From Stramenopiles sp. TOSAG23-6 (lineage: Eukaryota): a DNA stretch of 20,000 nucleotides. The notes under the pieces are model-generated. The model did no database searches. It saw nothing but the letters and a program-made list of their open reading frames with translations, and was not told the DNA's origin. The DNA lies in NCBI GenBank assembly GCA_900128565.1, contig LT635913.1:47196-67195 (forward strand). Reading direction: 5' to 3'. How positions within the stretch are numbered: the first letter of the stretch is position 1; every line of letters begins with the position of its first letter. Below, piece after piece: positions 3,506-20,000 of the stretch. Both the position numbers and the translations under genes were made by a program.

Positions 3506-5716
3506 ATGAAAAATGGAAAAGAAACTTCTGAAGCCTCTACATCTACAAAAATCAAAATGAAAAAGTTTCAAAGTAAATCAAATATTGTGTCCAGCGATGG
3601 GTACTTGACAGTTTCACCTTCAAATTCTTCTACTGGAAATTCGTCAGCTGATCATGTAGAATTTAAAGTGCAAGCACCTGAACTCATTCGTATAGTCCTC
3701 CAAGGCTTGTCGGAGTTAGGCTATTACAAAACTGCGGAAACTCTCTCTAACGAGTCAGGTGTAACAATTCACTCTGAACAAATGGCGCTATTTCGTAGAA
3801 GTATTTTAGACGGGGATTGGACTCTTTGTTTAGAATTGATACCTCATTTAAAATTTTCTCAAACTTCTCAGTCTTCTCAAACCTCACAAATTGAGTTGGC
3901 TCGTTTTTTTATATTAAGAGAAAAGTATCTTGAACTTTTAGAACAAAAGAAAACCACAGAAGCCATCAAATGCCTTCGAACAGAACTGTCTGAGAGTTCA
4001 TTACATAATTCCTCTAAACAAAATTCTGCTGTTCAGGACAACAATGCAGCAATTAGATTTGGTGACCAAAGTTGTTCTCAAATGTTTGATAGTTGTCAAT
4101 CATCAACTGTATTGAACAGCTCAAGATTAAAAACCCTATCCCCTTTGGTTTTGTGTAGTACTAAAAAGGATTTATTGCTCAAGGCCAAATGGGCAGGTAC
4201 AGAAGGCGGGTCTCGTATACATTTATTAAACAAATTCAATACTATATTGCAGCATTCAACCTTAGTACCAGAAAGTCGTCTTCGTACATTACTAGGTCAA
4301 TCATTACAAAATCAAATTGGAAAATCGTTATACCGTAGACCGAGGCATCAGCCATATTCCCTTTTGAATAATAACAAATGCATGCCACCTAAATTACCTA
4401 CACGGGCTGTGTGTGTTTTAGAGGAGCATAATAATGAAGTTTGGCATATAGAGTTTTCAAAAGATAGCAACAAAATGTGTTCATCATCGAAAGATGGTAC
4501 GACTATAATCTGGGATACAAGAGCTATTAAAAACGATCAATTTACTAAAGGATTTTTGCCTGTTCCTATACTTCATAAGCTAAAGCCTCACGAGACAAAA
4601 GATATACCAGTGATGTTTTCAACATGGAGCCCAGACGATTTACTGATTGTGACTTGTCATGGAGATGGAAGCGTCTATCTTTGGGATGCGCTATCAGGTG
4701 ATACTCGGTATAAATTAGTCGGTCATACATCTGCTGTAATATCAGCAGCTTGGCTTCCTGACGGGAAAAGTTTAGTCACAGGTGGAATTGATAAAAAAAT
4801 TATACTATGGGAAATAACGGAAAATATTCCTTCACCTCAAAATGATGTTACTATTAATATCATGAGTAATACACCTAATGGTACAACAAATGAAACAACA
4901 AATGAAACAACAAATGATACAACAAATGATACAACAAATGATACAACAAATGAAACAACAAATGAAACAACAAATGAAACAACAAATGGTACAACAAATG
5001 GTACAACAAATGAAACAACAAATGATACAACAAATGATACAACAAATGATACAACAAATGATACAACAAATGATACAACTGATGGTAATATTACAGATAC
5101 ATCACAGAGTTCAAGTTCATCATTTGATACTGAGTTAGCAGATGTTGGAGAGTTGGTTGAAGGGACAGAAAATATACCAAGTTCAAGCAACATAAGAATA
5201 ATTTCTCCAACATACTTGTGGTTAGGTGTTCAAGTGAATGACATTGTTTTAAATCATTCTGGGACTTCTGTGATAGTAGCAGGTTGCAATAATCAGGTGT
5301 ATATGTATAATTTAGTAAACCGCCAGAAAAAATCTGAAAGTTTTATAAAGGAAAGTGGGTCCGTCATGTCAATGAAATTGACTGATGATGGTCGTTATCT
5401 TTTGTTAGCTATTGCAAATAAAGATATACAAGTTTGGGATATACAAAAGCGCAAGTATGTACTAAACTTTAAGGGTCCTCGCTTAGGCCGGTATGTCATT
5501 CATTTTGCACTGGGTGGTGAAGGACAGTGCTTACTAGCATCTGGTAGTGAAGATTCTCAAATTTATTTATGGTATCGAATTACGGGTACTCCTCTTTCAG
5601 TGTTATCTGGACATGCAGCAACGGTGAATTGTGTGTCATGGGCAACAGTGGATTCAGGAAAATCACCTATATTAGCTAGTTGCAGTGATGATCATACCGT
5701 TCGCATTTGGCGATGA
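3506..5716 (+). CDS. WDR26: WDR26/GID7-like LisH-CTLH-WD40 subunit of the CTLH/GID E3 ligase
   Basis: LisH (ELIRIVLQGLSELGYYKTAETLSNESG), CTLH (FRRSILDGDW, ILREKYLELLE), VPESRLRTLL, WD40 repeats (HNNEVWHIEFS, ASGSEDSQIYLW, LASCSDDHTVRIW). First ATG is at 3506 but the frame is open from 3224. Confidence 0.88.
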   Translation: MKNGKETSEASTSTKIKMKKFQSKSNIVSSDGYLTVSPSNSSTGNSSADHVEFKVQAPELIRIVLQGLSELGYYKTAETLSNESGVTIHSEQMALFRRSILDGDWTLCLELIPHLKFSQTSQSSQTSQIELARFFILREKYLELLEQKKTTEAIKCLRTELSESSLHNSSKQNSAVQDNNAAIRFGDQSCSQMFDSCQSSTVLNSSRLKTLSPLVLCSTKKDLLLKAKWAGTEGGSRIHLLNKFNTILQHSTLVPESRLRTLLGQSLQNQIGKSLYRRPRHQPYSLLNNNKCMPPKLPTRAVCVLEEHNNEVWHIEFSKDSNKMCSSSKDGTTIIWDTRAIKNDQFTKGFLPVPILHKLKPHETKDIPVMFSTWSPDDLLIVTCHGDGSVYLWDALSGDTRYKLVGHTSAVISAAWLPDGKSLVTGGIDKKIILWEITENIPSPQNDVTINIMSNTPNGTTNETTNETTNDTTNDTTNDTTNETTNETTNETTNGTTNGTTNETTNDTTNDTTNDTTNDTTNDTTDGNITDTSQSSSSSFDTELADVGELVEGTENIPSSSNIRIISPTYLWLGVQVNDIVLNHSGTSVIVAGCNNQVYMYNLVNRQKKSESFIKESGSVMSMKLTDDGRYLLLAIANKDIQVWDIQKRKYVLNFKGPRLGRYVIHFALGGEGQCLLASGSEDSQIYLWYRITGTPLSVLSGHAATVNCVSWATVDSGKSPILASCSDDHTVRIWR
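4877..5080 (+). repeat. Coding 12-bp minisatellite AATGAW/AATGGT-ACAACA, 17 copies, encoding N[D/E/G]TT
   Basis: 17 units counted from the translation, inserted between WD40 repeats. Confidence 0.95.
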
Positions 5717-7883: not shown

Positions 7884-9950
7884 TTATAAATTAATAGTCG
7901 TCAACTCTGTGCCGTCATCGTCCATATCACACTGCGGTTCATCCATATTTCCATGAAGTCTGACATGAACATCATCAGTGTATAATATTTCCGAGTTTGG
8001 CATTTTATCCGAACTCTCTAAGGAATCACTTGGTCGGCCTAAAGGTACTAAATATGGAATGAGAAGTATTGGAAGTAATCTTGTTAAACTGCGGGTCAAA
8101 ACAAGCAACTCAATATTATGAAATTCAGGAGCACGAACACCTCCAAAGACTTCCAATAGCCCAACTCCAACATATCCTCCAATGACAGAACCAAAATTTG
8201 AAAGGCCCATTGTCATTGCAAAAAGTGTTGCCTCCATTTTTGGTGGGCATAATTTTGCTGCTAGAATAAAAACTGGCATTGTATTAAATCGACTTATTAA
8301 AGGGGATATAACTTCTTCGCCTAGCATGAAAGCTTTATCTGATATTCCAAGACTTTTGTTCCAACGTTGAACCCAAATAAGATCCATGTATTGTGAAAAA
8401 AAAATGTTTTAGTATAAAAAATCCATAGGTACGAAATTTCATACCAACAAGAAAAAACAATTAAATTCATTTTTCAAAACGTACATGAGATTGACAAATA
8501 CAAGTGCCAGTTGAGTCATTGCAAAGATTTTTCTGTATGGCCATGAACTAAAATATCTATTGTATAACGCCGTCCCAATGACAAAAAAAATATTTCCTAG
8601 AACGCCAAACCAGGAGTGAATAATGTGAAAAAATATTTTTTTTGTCAAGAAAAATGTTAGGTACAAAATTTTTATGGTAAAAAATGAATGAAAATTCAAT
8701 TTTGAAACCATACATAATTTAGGTGAAAAACAGGGACGTTCTCCATAGACCCCATTACAATTTTCTGGGGTTTCTTTTGACCAGTAGTAGATAACTTCTG
8801 AATATGGTTGCATTGCTCCTTGTAAGAAGATATAAATTGTTACTTGAGCTAATACAGGATTGATTTTAGATTCATAGTAATGTATAACGTAGCAAACAAC
8901 TACAGCAATGAGTATACTAAATATACATATTACTGAATTATCAGATACAATAGAAGCAAAACCACCCTTTTCTGAAGAACATATTTTGTATAGTTTGATA
9001 TTTGTTAGGTACAGAATTTGGTATAAAATTTAGGTAAAACATTCATGATGAAAACATACCATTGTCAAAGATATAGCACAAACAAATAAAGCCATTTTGA
9101 TCATCACGCCTTGTTTACCATTATTAATTGCATCTTTTAAAGGTTGAATATTTGAACATTTTCTATACGGAGGTTTGTCACGCTCTTCGGGTAGCCATCT
9201 TCGCCAAGCAGGAACCAGTACGGCTAGTGCTGGTATAACACATAAACCGAGAAGGACACGGCTACCAAACCATTCATAAAGAATTCCAGAAGAACAACCA
9301 GCAAAAATTTGACCAATTCCTAAAGACCCCCAGCATAACGTCTGCAAATCAGCGGCATATTTTGGGCGTTCACGACATCTTTTAGCGACAGATGCATCGA
9401 TCATTACATCAGGGGATGCGATGGAGTAATTAAACATAATCAATAATATTGTAACTATTGCAATGCCCAACCCAGGAGAAAAGGCAAATGATAGAGTTGA
9501 AAATACTCCTGAAAATCCAGCTATACCAATATATGGAGACAGGTGAAGTCCTGAAATTGGAAGTGTATCACTCAATACACCATACATAGATTTAAGTTGC
9601 CATGGAATGTTCCCCACTCCTGACACAACCTGCATTCTATCGGAAGATAGTCCAAGCCCTTTGTGCATTGTTGATTCCGTATCAGAGAGCAGATACCGCA
9701 TTGCGAAGAATCCCCAACCTTCACCAATTCCTTGGTTCACACCATACACAGCAACGACAGAAAGCACAAAATATAGACCGAATGTTCTCGTTAACCGGGA
9801 AAAATATTTGGCCAGCGTACAAGGAAAAAACATTACATAGTCCACGAATTCTGGATTAACAGGAAGTGTATGAAAGTCACGTATACTTGAATCCATACTT
9901 TGGTCTAAATCAAGGCTATCATCTGTCAATGGATCAAACTTTTGGTCCAT
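7884..9950 (-). CDS. BT1-family folate/biopterin transporter; inferred exons 9950-9060, 8966-8714, 8617-8485, 8385-7884
   Basis: PWQLKSMYGVLSDTLPI, ASPDVMIDA, LQTLCWG, GISDKAF, MPVFILAAKLCPPKMEATLFAMTMGLSNFG. The frame is continuous after removing 3 family introns. Confidence 0.88.
8386..8484 (-). mobile_element. Introner-like intron A, 99 nt, GT-AT
   Basis: ctcat|GTACGT...TTCACAATACAT|ggat restores NLMDLIWVQRW; no AG inside; CATG direct repeat at the junctions. Confidence 0.8.
8618..8713 (-). mobile_element. Introner-like intron B, 96 nt, GT-TC (boundary less certain)
   Basis: ttat|GTATGG...TTTTGTACCTAAC...TTCACATTATTC|actcc gives FSPKLYSWFG; in frame and stop-free. Confidence 0.65.
8967..9059 (-). 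mobile_element. Introner-like intron C, 93 nt, canonical GT-AG
   Basis: atg|GTATGT...CTGTACCTAAC...TTCAGAAAAG|ggt restores LTMGGFAS. Confidence 0.8.
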
Positions 9951-13524: not shown

Positions 13525-13678
13525 TAAAAGGAACTATCTTTTTTAATCATATTCTACTTTTTCACTTGTAATAGCCCTAAATTCACAATAAAAACACTTA
13601 TTCAGTAAAATAGCACAGTTTTTCCGATGCTTGAAGTGTTTCGTATTACTACCACACACGCTTGTTACTCCGTTGTAC

Positions 13679-16600
13679 TTACCAAGTTGCTTCACTTGGG
13701 TATTTTCTGTTATTCGTCACTATATTTTGCCTCGCGGATTCCATGATGTTAAGCTGTTGTTTTTCCAGAGTTATCTTGCGAATCCGAGCAGCTGCTGTAC
13801 TGCCATCCCTATTTTGTTTCATTCCGCATATAGAACAACCTTTACTAGGTAAAATATGGGAAGGATTAATAAAGGTACATGTATTTTGGAAAAATATTTC
13901 AAAAACAAAAAACTTGTTAGGTACAAAATTTCGTACGAAAAATAAATTCTAAAAAAAAATAAAACATACATGTGTTACATTTCCATGGTGCATTTTGTTT
14001 TTCTGTATTATCACTATGCCAAACACTTGTTGCGCTTTTCTTCTTCGGTATACTTTTCCATGATTTTATGGAGATGTTGGAAAGATTTGCATTATTTTCA
14101 TCATTTAGATGACTTTGATATTGAAAATTCGAGGTTTGAAAATGTTCACTACTTCTGATATAATTTTCCATCATAGACGATTTTTCATTAGCTTGTATTG
14201 TAGAGGGATGACGACTATTATTAGAATTGAACGTATTCATGCCAGATGATTCGAAATTATTACTTGTTTTTTTTTGGATCGAATGACGCGGGAAACTGCA
14301 CAATTCACATTTTGTTGCATCACGATTAAAATTCTCATATGTACACATTTTACAAACCCAATCGGAGGAGGTAGAAGAAAAGGAAACCATGGAGTTACAT
14401 CTCCCATCAATTATATCTAATTCTGAATCATCATCGCGTGTATACGCTGCTTGTACTTGCTGTAATTGTTCTTCTGCGGCCGCCGCTAATGCTTTCAATT
14501 TTCTTGTTTCATCGTCAGCTTTCTTTGCGGCTATGCGATTTTCATATTCAATGCGTTCTTGTTCAATACGACGTTCTTGTTCAATACGACGTTCTTGTTC
14601 AATACGACGTTCTTCTTCAATGCGACGTTCTTCTTCAATACGACGTTCTTCTTCAATACGACGTTCNAGTTCAAGACGCTCTTGTTCAATACGTTGTTCA
14701 ATACGTTGTTGTTCAAGACGTTTCTGTTCAATATTCTGAGATAACACAAAGTCCAAAGTCTCGTTTGCAACATCTGCACATTCGCGACAAGCTGCATTAG
14801 CACAAATAACAGCAGTATAAGCAGCAGATGCCGCGTTGACACAAAAGGTCTCATTATCAAGAGAATTTGTATTATCAAACTCATTAGCAGCATTGATCAT
14901 TTGCAGAGTTCCATTTTTAAATTGGTAAGATTTTGAAGGAGTAATCATCAAAGAATTATTGGCATCATTTACTGCAGCATATTGATCATCATGAAAAGTA
15001 TTGATTACTTCATTCTGTTTAAATATATTTGTATCATCTTTCAATTCTTGTTTCGATCCTTCCAGTGAAACTGTAGCTTTATCTTGTGGTTGTCTTGTAA
15101 TAATATTTGATTCAACGGCTGTTGATTTCCATACATTTTTACTATATGTAGCAGCCTTCGGCAAAGTAGTTGCTTTCTTTCTCCATGAATCTATTTCTGA
15201 TCGTCCTACGGTTTGTTCTATAGGGTTTCTTGGAAAGTATGTATTGTGAAAAAATATTTCAAAAAAAAATGTTAGGTATAAAATTTCGTACCAAAAAAAA
15301 ACTAGATTTGAAATTCATGATGGAAATGTACATAGCGGTTTAGAAATTCTTGCAGTTGTACTAGAATGTTTCTCTCGTTGGCTAGGACGTTTGGAAGATA
15401 TAGGTGGATAATTTACATTGTTGACTCCATTCGTGTATTTCGTGTATTTTTTTTTTGTTGTTGATGTTGTACTGATTGAAGTTGTTGACGATGAGGCAGA
15501 GTTTATATCGTTCACTTTCGCTCGAGGGACCAAATTTGATTGAGATACAGTATTAGAAGTTGCTGATGTCACAGGTACATCTGGATTCCTTTGAAGAATT
15601 TCACACACCATTTCAATAGCACGAATGCATGTATTGTGAAAAATATTTTTTTTTAGTTACAAAAATCGTTAGGTACAAAATTTGGTACGAAAACAAAAAT
15701 CAGGTAGAAAAGGGATGATGGAAATGTACATGCATTAGATGATGGTCCTTTGACAACAAGTTCATTAAGACCTTTGTACATTGGTTTTGATGACTCTTGT
15801 ACAGCTAGAGAAGTACCTGCATTGTAAAAAAAATAGAAATTAGAAATTCGTTAGGTACAAAATTTTCTAGTAAAAAAAATTAAATCTAAAATTCATAATT
15901 AAAGAGTACCAGTCTCTCGCATAATACGTTTGATGTTGCAACCTGAGGTACCTATTACAGTACCACGCTCTCTTGCAGTAAGTGAATGAAATGGTATGTA
16001 GGAAGCAAACCTTTGCAAAAATTCTGTGGCTTTTGTATGAGCGGCTTGAACTGCCGTGTCTGTACCCGTTATTGTAGCGATGAAAGTTTTCCGGTCAATT
16101 GAATAAGTTGCACCTGTTTCATCTTGAATTCGTTGTATTGTCGCACCTCCAGGACCAATGAATTTAAGCATTTTTTCAAGTGAGCCAAATTCAAACGTTT
16201 TCTGTGAAGATGACATTGGGCGGGGTTTCTTTTGAGATTGTGAGTTTCGTTTGACTGGAGCAACAACAGTTTTTAATGGTACCTTACGAGCTCGTGTGTA
16301 TGAAGGAAGGACTCCACTCTTCCCCCAGGCACTCCGCACTATTCTAGGCTTAGGATGAGATTGATTTGACAAGCCACCATCATCTATATTTGATGTTGTG
16401 ATGGATTTGACTGAATCGATGTTAGATCTACAATAAGGACAACTAGCTGCCTGTTTCTTTGCTAGAAAGGTCTGACGCCAGCTAGATAAACACCCATCGC
16501 AGAATTGATGACGGCACGGTCCTATTTCCACATCAACCAGATTAACCGTACAAACAATACATATGCCTTCAGAATCACTCTCCATACAACTGTTAATTTT

Positions 16601-16738
16601 ATCATCATCCAGATATGGCTTTATTGCAGAAGAATTGAACTGAGGTGGTAAGTGATTATTGTCAGATATGCCTTCAACTTCAAGATTCATAGATGTGAAC
16701 TTTCGTCTGAAAGACAAAGGCTCAGAAAAAGTGCTCAT
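13679..16738 (-). CDS. RING finger + 2 KH + coiled-coil + 2 RanBP2-type zinc finger protein; inferred exons 16738-15910, 15816-15730, 15628-15332, 15238-13970, 13878-13679
   Basis: C3HC4 RING (CIVC..PCRHQFCDGC..CPYCR); KH1 (FIGPGGATIQRIQDETGA); KH2 (VIGTSGCNIKRIMRETG..LVVKGP..CIRAIEMVCEIL) completed across 2 introns; zinc fingers WVCKMCTYEN..CELC and WKCNTCTFIN..CSIC. Confidence 0.85.
13879..13969 (-). mobile_element. Introner-like intron D, 91 nt, GT-AT
   Basis: acat|GTATGT...TCGTACGAAATTTTGTACCTAAC...CAAAATACAT|gtacc restores WKCNTCTFIN; 7-bp direct repeat ACATGTA. Confidence 0.87.
14545..14730 (-). repeat. Coding 18-bp repeat encoding (E[Q/E]ERRI)n charged helix
   Basis: Repeated ttcaatacgacgttcttg/c units; translation RRIEEERRIEQE...; contains one N. 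Confidence 0.9.
15239..15331 (-). mobile_element. Introner-like intron E, 93 nt, GT-AT
   Basis: ctat|GTACAT...TATACCTAAC...TTCACAATACAT|acttt; contains an in-frame TGA and removal joins two same-frame ORFs. Confidence 0.78.
15629..15729 (-). mobile_element. Introner-like intron F, 101 nt, GT-AT
   Basis: gcat|GTACAT...TTTTGTACCTAAC...TTCACAATACAT|gcatt restores the KH helix NACIRAIEMV. Confidence 0.85.
15817..15909 (-). mobile_element. Introner-like intron G, 93 nt, canonical GT-AG
   Basis: actg|GTACTC...TTTTGTACCTAAC...TTTACAATGCAG|gtact restores RETGTSLAV. Confidence 0.88.
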
Positions 16739-17027: not shown

Positions 17028-18923
17028 TTATTCCTTCATCGCCCGAGGAGATGTAGTGATTACGCTTAATTCAACATAAGATTTTGGCGCATTTCCTTCA
17101 GTCATAGTTTTATCAAAATGCATATTTCTTGGAGATTTTGCACTGCTTGATGACACATGTATTGTGAAAAANATATTTTTTTTTNGNTTNAAAAANTNCG
17201 TNAGGTACAAAATTTAGTATGAAAAACAATGTAGTAAAAGATTCAATTTAAAAAAACGTACAAGATTTGTCTTTGTATTTTCTGCTCTCCAAAAGAACTT
17301 TGGTGGAGTTGCACCATGATCTTCAATATGGAAAATTTCATATTGGGTAAGTAAAATTGCTATAATCCCAAGAAGTGTTGCAACAGCTAAAGTTATAAAA
17401 ATGATACTCCAGCCCCAATCACCTTGAAGAATTGGACCCACAAACATTTTGAGGAATATTGCAGAGACAAGCATAGAAATAAAATCCAAAAAACAACTCA
17501 CCAAGCCCGTTTTCCGACCACCAAATTGTACAGCAAACATTCCAGGCACTAAATAATACGACACGGAAATTCCAGCGGAGCAAACGAATATGAGAACAGT
17601 TTTCAGTATAACCAAATCTAATTTTTCTGGATCTGAAATTCCAGGAGCGGAGAGAAACGCTAGCGCAAGTAAAGCGAGTATTGAAATTACTGAAAGCCCA
17701 GCACACATTCTCATTTGGTTTCCACGAGTTAAACGACCATGTACTGTAAAAAACTATTTAAAAAATAAAATTGTTAGGTACAAAATTTCGTACGAAAAAT
17801 AAATAAATTTGAAATTCATGATGAAACCGTACATACACACGACCAAATATAGCAACACCAATAAATAAACCTGCTTGAAAAAACATACCCAGACTGGCCG
17901 CTTCGCCATCCGTGAGTAAAGCACTGTGAAAAATATTCCAAGTTGAAAATTGGTTAGGTACAAAATTTTCAATGAAAAAAAATCTGAAGTGAATGATAAA
18001 AACGAACAGGTTCGTGCCTGTATCGAAAAATAGAGAGGTACTAATTGACCCATTCTTTTTGTTAGGGTCAATAAACACATTCCAGATGTTGCTATAAGAA
18101 ATCGCCCATCTAGAAGAATAGTCATTGCAATCATAAATTCTTCAAAGATTGTCGTTTTCGAAGTGGTTGATGCCGTAGTATCGAGATTTTGTTCAGTTTT
18201 TTGTTTTTCTATCGAAGTTTTATCTGAACTTTTCACAGCTGATGATGTATTTTCATTCAAAGTATTCGATTTCTCCGTATTACCTGATTCTATATTAACT
18301 ACCACATTTGTGTCGTTTGAATCATCCTTTTTTTCTGAGGGTTTGTCATTAAGAGTAATGAACCCAACTATTGCGTTACACACTGTTATAGCAGCCGCAA
18401 TCTGGAGACAAACGCGCCAGTTAAAAGACTCCTGCAAATTACCGTAAAACACTTTAGAAAACATATCACCAGCACGACTTGACATAGAAAGAGACCAGAA
18501 AGCATCCGGAAGTTCTGCAGCAGTAAACCAACCACGAATGATTACTGCGCAAGCTGGCCATACAGGGCTTCCAAAAATTTCAAGAATCGTTGCTGACAAG
18601 ACAATATCATTCAATGAATTAGCAATCGATAACATAAATAAAACTATGGTCATCGTACATAAACCAATTGTTACACTACGAGCTCCACCCGCATAATCAA
18701 TAAAGAAACCGCTTGTTATTTTACCAAATGCCGAGCCGAGGGTTTGTGCAGCTAAAATCGTCGAACATCGCGCTTTATCAAAACCAATTTCTTTGGACAT
18801 TGCTGCATACAGAGGTGGTGGTGCATTTAAGCCCACAATAAACATAGAGTATACACCAAATAGTAAGATAGATATCCATGTTGATGTTTTCACACTTTTG
18901 TTATCTTTTTGCGAGTCCGACAT
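17028..18923 (-). CDS. Major facilitator superfamily transporter; inferred exons 18923-18008, 17918-17833, 17738-17262, 17156-17028
   Basis: GKITSGFFIDYAG (motif A-like), WPACAVIIRGWF, SRAGD, two hydrophobic halves with a central hydrophilic loop, YYLVPGMFAVQFGG. Confidence 0.85.
17157..17261 (-). mobile_element. Introner-like intron H, 105 nt, GT-AT
   Basis: ctt|GTACGT...TTTTGTACCTNAC...TTCACAATACAT|gtg joins in frame to the terminal exon; several Ns inside. Confidence 0.72.
17739..17832 (-). mobile_element. Introner-like intron I, 94 nt, GT-AT (alternative in-frame TAG 15 nt upstream)
   Basis: tat|GTACGG...TCGTACGAAATTTTGTACCTAAC...TTTACAGTACAT|ggt gives FGRVYGRLTR. Confidence 0.75.
17919..18007 (-). 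mobile_element. Introner-like intron J, 89 nt, GT-TT (boundary less certain)
   Basis: acct|GTTCGT...TTTTGTACCTAAC...TTCACAGTGCTT|tactc is needed to enter the LTDGEAASLG helix frame. Confidence 0.62.
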
Positions 18924-19232: not shown

Positions 19233-19946
19233 ATGTATGAAGCTACAACTTTTTCATGTATTTTATTGCTTCCTTGTTTGATTTTGGCTGCAAATATTCC
19301 ATCAAATTGGGAGAGTGATACTGAGGAATCTTTCACGTTACCGCTTGGTGGGCCAAATAAAAATGCAAAATTTGTGACTGTAGATCGCAGAAAGAATCTT
19401 TCGCCGGAAGAGTTTTACGAACAGTATGCAAAAAAAGGCATTCCTGTGGTTGTAACAGATGTTATGGAGTACTTTCCTGATGAATGGAAGAACCGTGTGC
19501 GAACAACTTTTGAAAGTATTACTATAAATGAGTTACGTAAAATTAGTCCTGACACATCTTGGGGCATAAAAGGCTCAATCGACGTTTTTGTAGTTATTGC
19601 ACGCAATATTATGATAATACGTGTTTTTATAGTATCATTATTTTTTCATTTGTAAAAAAATTGATATATTGTTTAAATTATATGGGAGATTACTACCTGA
19701 CCTTAATTTGCCTGAAAAACCTTATTTCAGTAAGTTTGACTCAGTAGATGAGTCTGCAGATATTTTTAGCCAACAACCTGGCCTGGTGTTTTGGGCACAG
19801 GAAGGGATTCCATTCGGTGGGTATGCACATATTGATGATTCATGCAATTCATCATTTTCAATGCAATTTATAGGTAACAAAAAATGGTATTTGTGGCCAC
19901 CAAATTGGCCACCAAATATAGAAAACAAAAAAGATGGAAACACGGT
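19233..19946 (+). CDS. JmjC/cupin-like dioxygenase with probable signal peptide (3' truncated)
   Basis: LSPEEFYEQYAKKGIPVVVTD, then in another frame AHIDD..SMQFIGNKKWYLWPP. The frames could be joined by a GT-AG intron at 19584-19632. Confidence 0.72.
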
Positions 19947-20000
19947 GTACGTTTTCATTATGAATTTCAAATTTATTTTTTTTTTCGTACGAAATTTTGT
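19947..20000 (+). mobile_element. Introner-like intron K (5' part, cut by window end)
   Basis: GTACGTTTTCATTATGAATTTCAAATTTATTTT..TCGTACGAAATTTTGT, closely matching the start of intron I, on the + strand in a + strand gene. Confidence 0.82.

Follow-up and report, generated by a model that had tools for sequence, protein, structure and literature searches.

A zinc-finger gene interrupted by one copy of an introner-like repeat family whose removal at a 3' AT, and not at an AG, rebuilds the finger

In introners as they have been described, a duplication supplies one splice site and the element supplies the other, and the element is spliced out together with one of the two repeats (10.1101/2022.06.06.494994, PMC11282704). 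A comparable family is found in a 20,000-nucleotide (nt) stretch of contig LT635913.1 from Stramenopiles sp. TOSAG23-6, referred to below as the window. Attention centers on one insert, called D, which lies within a zinc finger of a gene encoding a protein with a RING finger, KH domains and two zinc fingers of this kind. D has odd ends for an intron. The main explanation, missed in the initial annotation, is that D is one copy of a mobile-element-like repeat family: an AT-rich element of about 95 nt, present in 11 copies in the window.

Introners and introns derived from MITEs (miniature inverted-repeat transposable elements) have been described from Micromonas, Aureococcus, dinoflagellates and others as many near-identical short introns at unrelated positions, with short inverted ends and a repeat at the junction. 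The family in the window resembles them in its many copies and, apparently, in its ends. Similar copies occur at unrelated intron positions, with 11 copies in 4 genes and a depth of 500 to 14,000 times single-copy depth in the DNA metagenome X3. It differs at the 3' end. The described families end in AG by way of an AG duplication, whereas here the apparent duplication is of AT and the proposed 3' end is CAT. The introner surveys described in PMC12130899 begin from annotated introns and accept just AG or AC as 3' ends, so that a GT-AT family would be missed.

The MITE-derived introns of Fritillaria borealis and F. pellucida are described as having YAY before the 5' site and YAY as their last three bases. 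A 3' AT is the commonest end among them (34% and 44% of introns), and they are removed by the U2-type spliceosome (PMC13326754). The arrangement in the window, CAT^GT...CAT^ (where ^ marks a cut), fits this YAY rule. However, the main classes reported for F. borealis begin with AG (AG/AC and AG/AT) and GT/AG accounts for only 5% (PMC13326754), whereas the element here has a strong GTAYG. The hosts also differ. Fritillaria are larvacean tunicates, whereas the present host looks like a compact, intron-poor, protist-type organism, with about 12 genes per 20 kb, one of them for a BT1 transporter.

Amoebophrya introners are likewise repeated non-canonical introns, with direct repeats of 3-5 nt at the junctions, terminal inverted repeats and an ambiguous cut (PMC7789003). 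As described, they have no preferred terminal dinucleotides, their inverted repeats are 8-20 nt long, and U1 was not found in that study (PMC7789003). In contrast, the copies in the window belong to one family, which conserves GT at its start, has AT at its end, includes a branch-like motif and shows inverted ends of only 5-8 nt. The nonconventional introns of euglenids also have non-canonical ends, repeats resembling target-site duplications and ends that can pair; in the published description (PMC11282704) they have neither a polypyrimidine tract nor a consensus GT at the 5' end, both of which are present in the element here. The closest precedents are the YAY/3'-AT introns of Fritillaria and the introners of Amoebophrya.

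Insert D is 91 nt long on the minus strand, has a GC content of 0.19 and, in the GT...AT register, begins with GT and ends with AT. Its removal joins ...NAPWKCNT to CTFINPSHILPSKGCSICGMKQ..., after which the frame stays open up to the stop at 13679-13681. The features of the insert and of the rebuilt finger are as follows.

13879..13969, minus strand: intron D in the GT...AT register, element copy (nhmmer E 2.6e-18)
13967..13973, minus strand: upstream ACATGTA direct repeat (last exon bases and first intron bases)
13876..13882, minus strand: downstream ACATGTA direct repeat (last intron bases and first exon-5 bases)
13916..13923, minus strand: TACCTAAC, branch-site-like (CTAAC), with the presumed branch A 38 nt from the 3' end of D
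13921..13936, minus strand: central palindrome GTACGAAATTTTGTAC, the sole helix of the consensus fold, with no covariation
13970..13985, minus strand: N-terminal half of finger 2 (WKCNT and the first base of a Cys codon), at the end of exon 4
13826..13878, minus strand: (C)TFINPSHILPSKGCSIC, the C-terminal half of finger 2, with which exon 5 begins

The joined sequence reads W-K-C-N-T-C-T-F-I-N-x9-C-S-I-C, that is, W-x-C-x2-C-T-F-x-N-x9-C-x2-C. Fingers of the RanBP2/NZF family follow the pattern W-x-C-x(2,4)-C-x3-N-x6-C-x2-C. The rebuilt finger carries all of the named residues of this pattern, but its loop has 9 residues instead of 6. The initial annotation had proposed the same finger with a loop of x8; the rebuilding itself is confirmed, and the loop is x9. 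Its C-T-F-x-N run also occurs in the NZF finger of NPL4, which aligns to finger 1 of the same protein.

Only a non-AG junction rebuilds this finger. Among 16,261 donor/acceptor pairs scanned around D, the finger pattern was restored solely by junctions of that kind and by none ending in AG; D therefore lacks the terminal AG of U2-type introns. Two AGs lie 34 nt from 13879, both out of frame: the one after the branch-like motif, ending at 13913, and the nearest one downstream of D, ending at 13845. An in-frame AG is first reached 39 nt away; it ends at 13840 and would give WKCNT-C-CSIC, with TFIN lost. Reading through D leads to a stop at 13917-13919. These points on the AG sites and on the read-through stop had been made in the initial annotation, and each was reproduced when derived again.

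The exact position of the cut can slide. The 7-nt repeat ACATGTA stands at both junctions of D, giving 8 registers with identical mRNA: AC-AT, CA-TA, AT-AC, TG-CA, GT-AT, TA-TG, AT-GT and TG-TA. Three further registers give the same protein. The sliding had been noted before, with AT-AC, TG-CA and GT-AT as the choices; the number of equivalent registers is 8 rather than 3, and the accompanying statements, that none of them is GT-AG and that a spliced product could not tell them apart, hold. The splice register is thus not fixable from sequence (GT-AT, AT-AC, TG-CA and others).

The part of the gene that follows D behaves as coding sequence. The exon 5 frame of 66 codons would be open by chance with P ~0.008, judged by base composition, and its codon-usage score is +11.9 bits in the predicted frame versus -35.5 and -57.4 bits in the other two. 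A PDB search with the exon-5 half of the finger alone gave no match.

A model of this minus-strand gene with four element introns, A to D, gives an open protein of 893 codons that contains a RING finger, KH domains and two fingers. Each of the four introns is in phase 1, and three of them come after a codon-initial T (T^GT, T^GC and T^AC).

15910..16738, minus strand: exon 1, counted from the ATG and encoding a RING finger and KH domains
15817..15909, minus strand: intron A, same element, canonical GT...CAG, with its AG in the alignment column of the AT of other copies
15629..15729, minus strand: intron B, same element, GT...AT, 101 nt, splitting the last helix of a KH domain
15239..15331, minus strand: intron C, same element, GT...AT, 93 nt
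13970..15238, minus strand: exon 4, with an 18-nt coding repeat and finger 1
14298..14360, minus strand: finger 1, WVCKMCTYENFNRDATKCELC, whose closest solved relatives are NZF/RanBP2 fingers
13679..13878, minus strand: exon 5, 66 codons including the split Cys codon, with the stop at 13679-13681

Finger 1 matches the NZF finger of NPL4 in PDB sequences (E 1e-4) and also TRABID, ZRANB2, HOIP and TAB2. Besides NPL4, 54 PDB sequences matched at E up to 1, with NZF/RanBP2 fingers best and rubredoxins and others lower. Its Pfam match falls under the curated cut-off (15.8 versus 27 bits). The rebuilt finger 2 shares W-x-C-x2-C-T-F-x-N...C-x2-C with the NZF/RanBP2 fingers of NPL4, TRABID, TAB2 and HOIP, whereas the host loops, 9 residues in finger 2 and 7 in finger 1, differ from their 6. 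Between the KH region and finger 1, exon 4 carries an 18-nt coding repeat (14554-14733, minus strand) that encodes a run of (E/Q)ERRIE.

The other copies of the element show what kind of sequence D is. Its 21-mer core has 7 matches in the window at no more than 3 mismatches, versus 0.01 expected, and none of 200 shuffles reached 7. A repeat search gave 10 copies, and a profile built from their alignment found 10 copies on the minus strand and one on the plus strand (E 4.9e-11 to 1.6e-26). The ten minus-strand copies are spread over three genes, which encode a BT1 transporter, the RING-KH-finger protein and an MFS transporter; the eleventh is in a plus-strand gene. Every one of the 11 copies, in 4 genes, is in sense orientation relative to its host gene. 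The copies outside the RING-KH-finger gene are the following.

8386..8484, minus strand: e8439, BT1 gene, GT...AT, 99 nt, best in-frame junction by the homolog profile
8618..8715, minus strand: e8671, BT1 gene, needing removal of 96 nt (GT-TC or AT-AT) or in-frame retention, the exception
8967..9059, minus strand: e9019, BT1 gene, canonical GT...AAG
17157..17261, minus strand: e17215, MFS gene, TT^GT...AT^, AT-AC register unavailable
17739..17832, minus strand: e17788, MFS gene, in-frame GT...AT, with an in-frame AG alternative ending at 17754 that adds 5 residues
17924..18007, minus strand: e17968, MFS gene, GT(18003)-AG(17924), 80 nt, or GT(18007)-AC(17916), 92 nt
19947..20000, plus strand: eleventh copy, cut by the end of the window, in sense inside a plus-strand gene (profile match 19938-20000, E 4.9e-11)

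Copies typically begin with GTAYG at the 5' end, contain TACCTAAC and a T-rich tract, and in most cases finish with ...ACAAT-ACAT at the 3' end. The consensus over the window is (Y)AT ^ GTAYGTTTTCATCATGAATTT ... CGTACGAAATTTTGTACCTAAC ... T-rich ... TTTTCACAATACAT ^ G. In the registers assigned, copies are 84-105 nt long, with a GC content of 0.18-0.27 versus 0.35 for exon 4, and they are 71-88% identical to the consensus. The extended GT consensus is present: D starts with GTATGT, and GTAYG or GTAYA starts 8 of the 10 complete copies, the others having GTACT (A) and GTTCG (e17968). All 10 complete copies contain the TACCTAAC motif, exactly in 8, with an N in one and as TACCTATG in e8439. A U2-type branch site would have CTRAY at 18-45 nt from the 3' end and a pyrimidine tract after it. 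The 6 copies that end in AT have a candidate CTAAC 33-44 nt from the proposed 3' end with a T-rich tract between, as would be expected of such a site.

The body of the element, GTAY...RTAC, has short inverted ends. AT is found on both flanks in 5 of the 6 AT-type copies, e17215 having TT and AT, and the junction repeats are 2-7 nt long; the copies are few, and no empty site is among them. A consensus fold of 7 copies shows the central hairpin alone, with no terminal helix and 0 compensatory pairs. In e17215, seven single Ns cluster at 17172-17202, and one more N lies at 14667 in the 18-nt coding repeat; these look like assembly consensus ambiguity at repeats.

Removal at the element-homologous GT and ACAT^ restores the frame in all six AT-type copies (lengths removed: D 91, C 93, B 101, e17215 105, e17788 94 and e8439 99 nt). 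Past the branch motif, the first AG at a distance of more than 10 nt is out of frame in four of the six. Its use would cost e8439 11 residues and would give e17788 5 more, which leaves e17788 ambiguous. The in-frame AG of e17788 is an AATAG 15 nt before CAT^ that adds FFTVH; another, an ACAG that ends 5 nt before CAT^, is out of frame. Of the 10 complete copies, 8 have a stop within the element when read through. In copy A, GCAG^ occupies the same alignment column as the ACAT^ of the others. The initial view of D as the best test case is arguable: e8439 has homolog support, and e17788, which skips an AG ending 5 nt upstream, is a second natural test of the choice between AG and AT.

Evidence from homologs is available for the BT1 gene. 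A profile was made from 56 homologs of at least 480 amino acids, out of 150 representatives returned. With the GT donor of e8439 fixed, CAT^ is the best of all in-frame acceptors (652.1 bits; the next scores 645.4), and when both ends were scanned the GT-AT register set also came first (664.5 versus 662.5 bits). The alignment with 8 homologs has no gap at this junction. The second copy in the gene, e8671, behaves differently. GT-AT removal there takes 94 nt and is out of frame, whereas the homologs favor 96 nt; two options tie, GT-TC at the homologous 3' position and AT-AT (664.5 and 664.9 bits), of which AT-AT restores a Phe common to 8 of 8 relatives. Reading through e8671 is open and in frame with 32 extra residues, so the copy is possibly retained. 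A search for homologs of the MFS exon found none, and that gene was therefore judged by codon usage only.

Reads from natural populations provide a further line of evidence. Part of the gene is contained in 17 of 18 runs, which are marine plankton save for two of 'organism A', one of 'organism B' and one without an organism label. Runs X6, X8 and X9, filed as RNA (X6 being poly(A)), and X3, an independent DNA metagenome, were compared to the window. In X3, contigs enter D from exon 5 and from exon 4 (records 1 and 2, with 0 and 2 differences) and break inside the repeat, so the insert is present in the DNA of a natural population. Record 1 shows 0 differences over 13560-13902 and confirms the AT at 13879-13880. 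The insert-bearing form is at flank depth in both records (depth 6-7.5). Summed depth in X3 is 3,473-96,867 in element bins versus 6-8 on unique flanks. Together with 11 copies per 20 kb, this would fit, as a rough estimate, some ten thousand copies if the genome spans a few tens of Mb, although depth summed over contigs does not equal copy number.

Poly(A) RNA presents a different picture. If the AT-type copies (6 of 10) were kept in mRNA, their core words should pile up in X6 as they do in DNA. Instead, element bins in X6 have depths of 0.69-6.74 versus up to 10.4 in exon bins, and 5 of the 10 placed contigs touch an element. One contig, record 14, matches exon 3 from 15570 to 15332, immediately next to the GT of intron C, and continues with 19 letters that are not intron. 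Apparent joints among read contigs were also considered as evidence of splicing; they connect different element copies and are uninformative. In X8 and X9, an excess of the element at 13884-13991 and in other element bins reflects either a large share of carried-over DNA or plentiful intron RNA, unspliced or excised.

Taken together, it is likely that D is an introner/MITE-type spliceosomal intron with its 3' end supplied by an AT target duplication. The observation that a non-AG junction restores the finger is confirmed. The claim that the insert is an intron splitting a RanBP2/NZF-type finger stands as far as its sequence logic goes; removal from mRNA is supported at the level of the family, by the sense orientation of 11 of 11 copies, the restored frame in 6 of 6, the BT1 homolog profile and the depletion in poly(A) RNA, and would extend to D itself.

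In the proposed mechanism, the element would bring its own GTAYG 5' splice site, its branch-like TACCTAAC and its T-rich tract. Most young copies sit between two ATs, which would represent an apparent target duplication of 2 bp. Removing the element and one AT would then return exactly the original coding sequence. The element with the second AT would be an intron of the form GT...AT and the first AT with the element one of the form AT...AC, the mRNA being identical. The GT-AT register is preferred because it is the sole one common to e17215 and to the canonical column of copy A, and the true chemical register is presumably GT-AT. The 3' cut would follow CAT rather than AG, only the last base differing from the canonical form. 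It is probable that the element is a major-type (U2) spliceosomal intron, given its strong 5' site, a CTAAC placed 33-44 nt before the end, its T tract, the sense orientation and the poly(A) depletion. The major spliceosome of the host would accordingly cut at, and accept, YAT at the 3' end, with the A at -2 kept.

Several observations weigh against this reading. The conservation of GTAYG and TACCTAAC may reflect the youth of the copies, which are 71-88% identical to their consensus. Copy e8671 fits neither GT-AT nor any AG, and canonical AG options exist for e17788 and e17968. The 9-residue loop of finger 2 exceeds the family length of 6, and neither a protein homolog search at near and longer lengths nor metagenome contigs yielded an ortholog of the C-terminal part of the gene that would show an uninterrupted finger. 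On the RNA side, no contig spans D in X6, X8 or X9, and the joined form was not seen in them; splicing at D is thus inferred, not observed. The 19 unplaced letters of record 14 could be adaptor, remnants of which occur in X6. In X9, records 31 and 32 read 22-25 nt into introns C and B, and in X8 and X9 (RNA-Seq, 'other') element depth is about 5,000 times exon depth, a DNA-like ratio. Unspliced RNA or DNA carry-over is therefore present.

Other explanations of D have to be weighed against these data. D could be a disruptive transposon insertion that is imprecisely removed, in which case the mRNA would stop at 13917 or use the downstream AG, and the protein would lack its last finger. This is conceivable for D alone, where no RNA contig crosses the insert, canonical rules predict the AG ending at 13845 and the finger loop is atypically long, and X9 contigs do extend into sister introns. 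Yet all 66 codons of exon 5 are open (P ~0.008) and show coding-type usage in just the frame that the non-AG junction sets, 6 of 6 AT-type copies restore the frame at the same element position, one of them with homolog confirmation in an unrelated gene, and the family is nearly absent from poly(A) RNA despite 500 to 14,000 times single-copy depth in DNA. Cryptic use of AG in thousands of genes would frameshift most of them (4 of 6 here). A disruptive insertion at D, which leaves the family pattern unexplained, is therefore unlikely. Removal might instead be non-spliceosomal and guided by structure, as in euglenid nonconventional introns, with the inverted ends pairing and bringing the junctions together. 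The 11 of 11 sense orientation implies strand-specific signals, whereas end-pairing would work either way round. The minimum-energy fold of D does join the ends by 8 bp (z -2.1, with 5 of 200 shuffles as good), the junctions carry direct repeats, and e8671 has no fixed dinucleotide; but copies other than D share only about 5 pairing bases, and the 7-copy consensus fold keeps just the central hairpin with 0 compensatory pairs. The element also has the T-rich tract, GTAYG and CTAAC that nonconventional introns are described as being without (PMC11282704). A structure-guided route is accordingly quite improbable.

The minor (U12-type) spliceosome, which cuts AT-AC introns and is known to tolerate varied 3' ends, might also remove the element. 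U12-type introns have the 5' motif RTATCCTT and a branch motif about 10-20 nt from the 3' end. An AT-AC register is available in 5 of the 6 AT-type copies, TACCTAAC agrees with the U12 branch consensus at 6 of 8 positions, and the term GT-AT turns up in literature listings on U12-type introns. However, the 5' end is ATGTAYG or GTAYG (in D, ATGTATGT or GTATGTTT) and not RTATCCTT, and the branch-like motif is too far from the 3' end, at 38 nt for D and 33-44 nt across the family. Copy e17215 would have to be TT-AC, and in AG-type copies the GT that is used stands two bases downstream of the AT, so that one recognition register would not serve both types; removal by the U12-type machinery is very doubtful. 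Finally, the element could be eliminated from DNA, as are the internal eliminated sequences of ciliates, and so never enter mRNA. Its short AT-rich form, repeated dinucleotide borders, short inverted ends and poly(A) RNA depletion would all agree with this. What makes it exceedingly unlikely is that the bulk DNA of X3 holds both junctions of D at flank depth and the element at 500 to 14,000 times single-copy depth, rather than lacking it; in addition, the sense-only orientation would be unexplained, and the genes read in the standard code.

With D and its relatives read as AT-ending spliceosomal introns, the relation between age and ending can be considered. The four copies nearest the consensus (D, C, B and e17788, at 84-88%) all end in AT, and an AG option exists in 3 of the 6 diverged copies (71-78%). 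This hints, on very small numbers, that old copies drift toward the canonical AG.

A literature search found the element undescribed, with its 17-mer core absent and no GT-AT introner family, although introner-survey supplements, which lay outside the search, may list families from marine metagenome-assembled genomes. Its core has 0 matches in a metagenome contig collection, and no Rfam family and no phage match were found in the window. Matches to the 16-mer or 21-mer core at 28 viral-contig and 3 prokaryote loci were rejected as chance, since the profile aligned no full copy there and covered mostly the surroundings of the seed, at no more than 20.9 bits.

The surrounding window is very compact, with about 12 genes in 20 kb and gaps of 100-300 bp. 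All recognized introns are copies of the one element family, save a possible one at 19584. The plus-strand gene at the end of the window needs a further short intron within 19584-19683 that is not an element copy; a canonical 49-nt GT...TATAG (19584-19632) and a 100-nt GT...TAT are both in frame. Elsewhere, a 12-nt tandem repeat at 4869-5079 on the plus strand (17.6 copies, 93% matches) encodes a run of TTNE/TTND in a WD40/LisH (WDR26-like) gene.

The near-universality of the terminal AG is an open question in splicing, and natural large-scale exceptions are few (Fritillaria, Amoebophrya and euglenids). The present locus may point to another. It is possible, though somewhat short of probable, that a marine plankton eukaryote with a compact genome has a single introner family, of the order of ten thousand copies, with CAT in place of YAG at the 3' site and with 5' and branch sites of textbook form. 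Its major spliceosome would then dispense with the terminal G at the second step, independently of Fritillaria, driven by the 2-bp AT target duplication of a transposon. A family that changes the last base alone, from G to T, would isolate recognition of the 3' site as a single variable, and it would tie the change of the 3' end to transposon target duplication. If this is true, the shift of older copies to AG (3 of the 6 most diverged versus 0 of the 4 least) would be a system in the course of being re-canonised. Because standard gene finders and published introner surveys take AG or AC ends only, such genomes would be mis-annotated, with split or truncated genes, and families of this kind would be overlooked.

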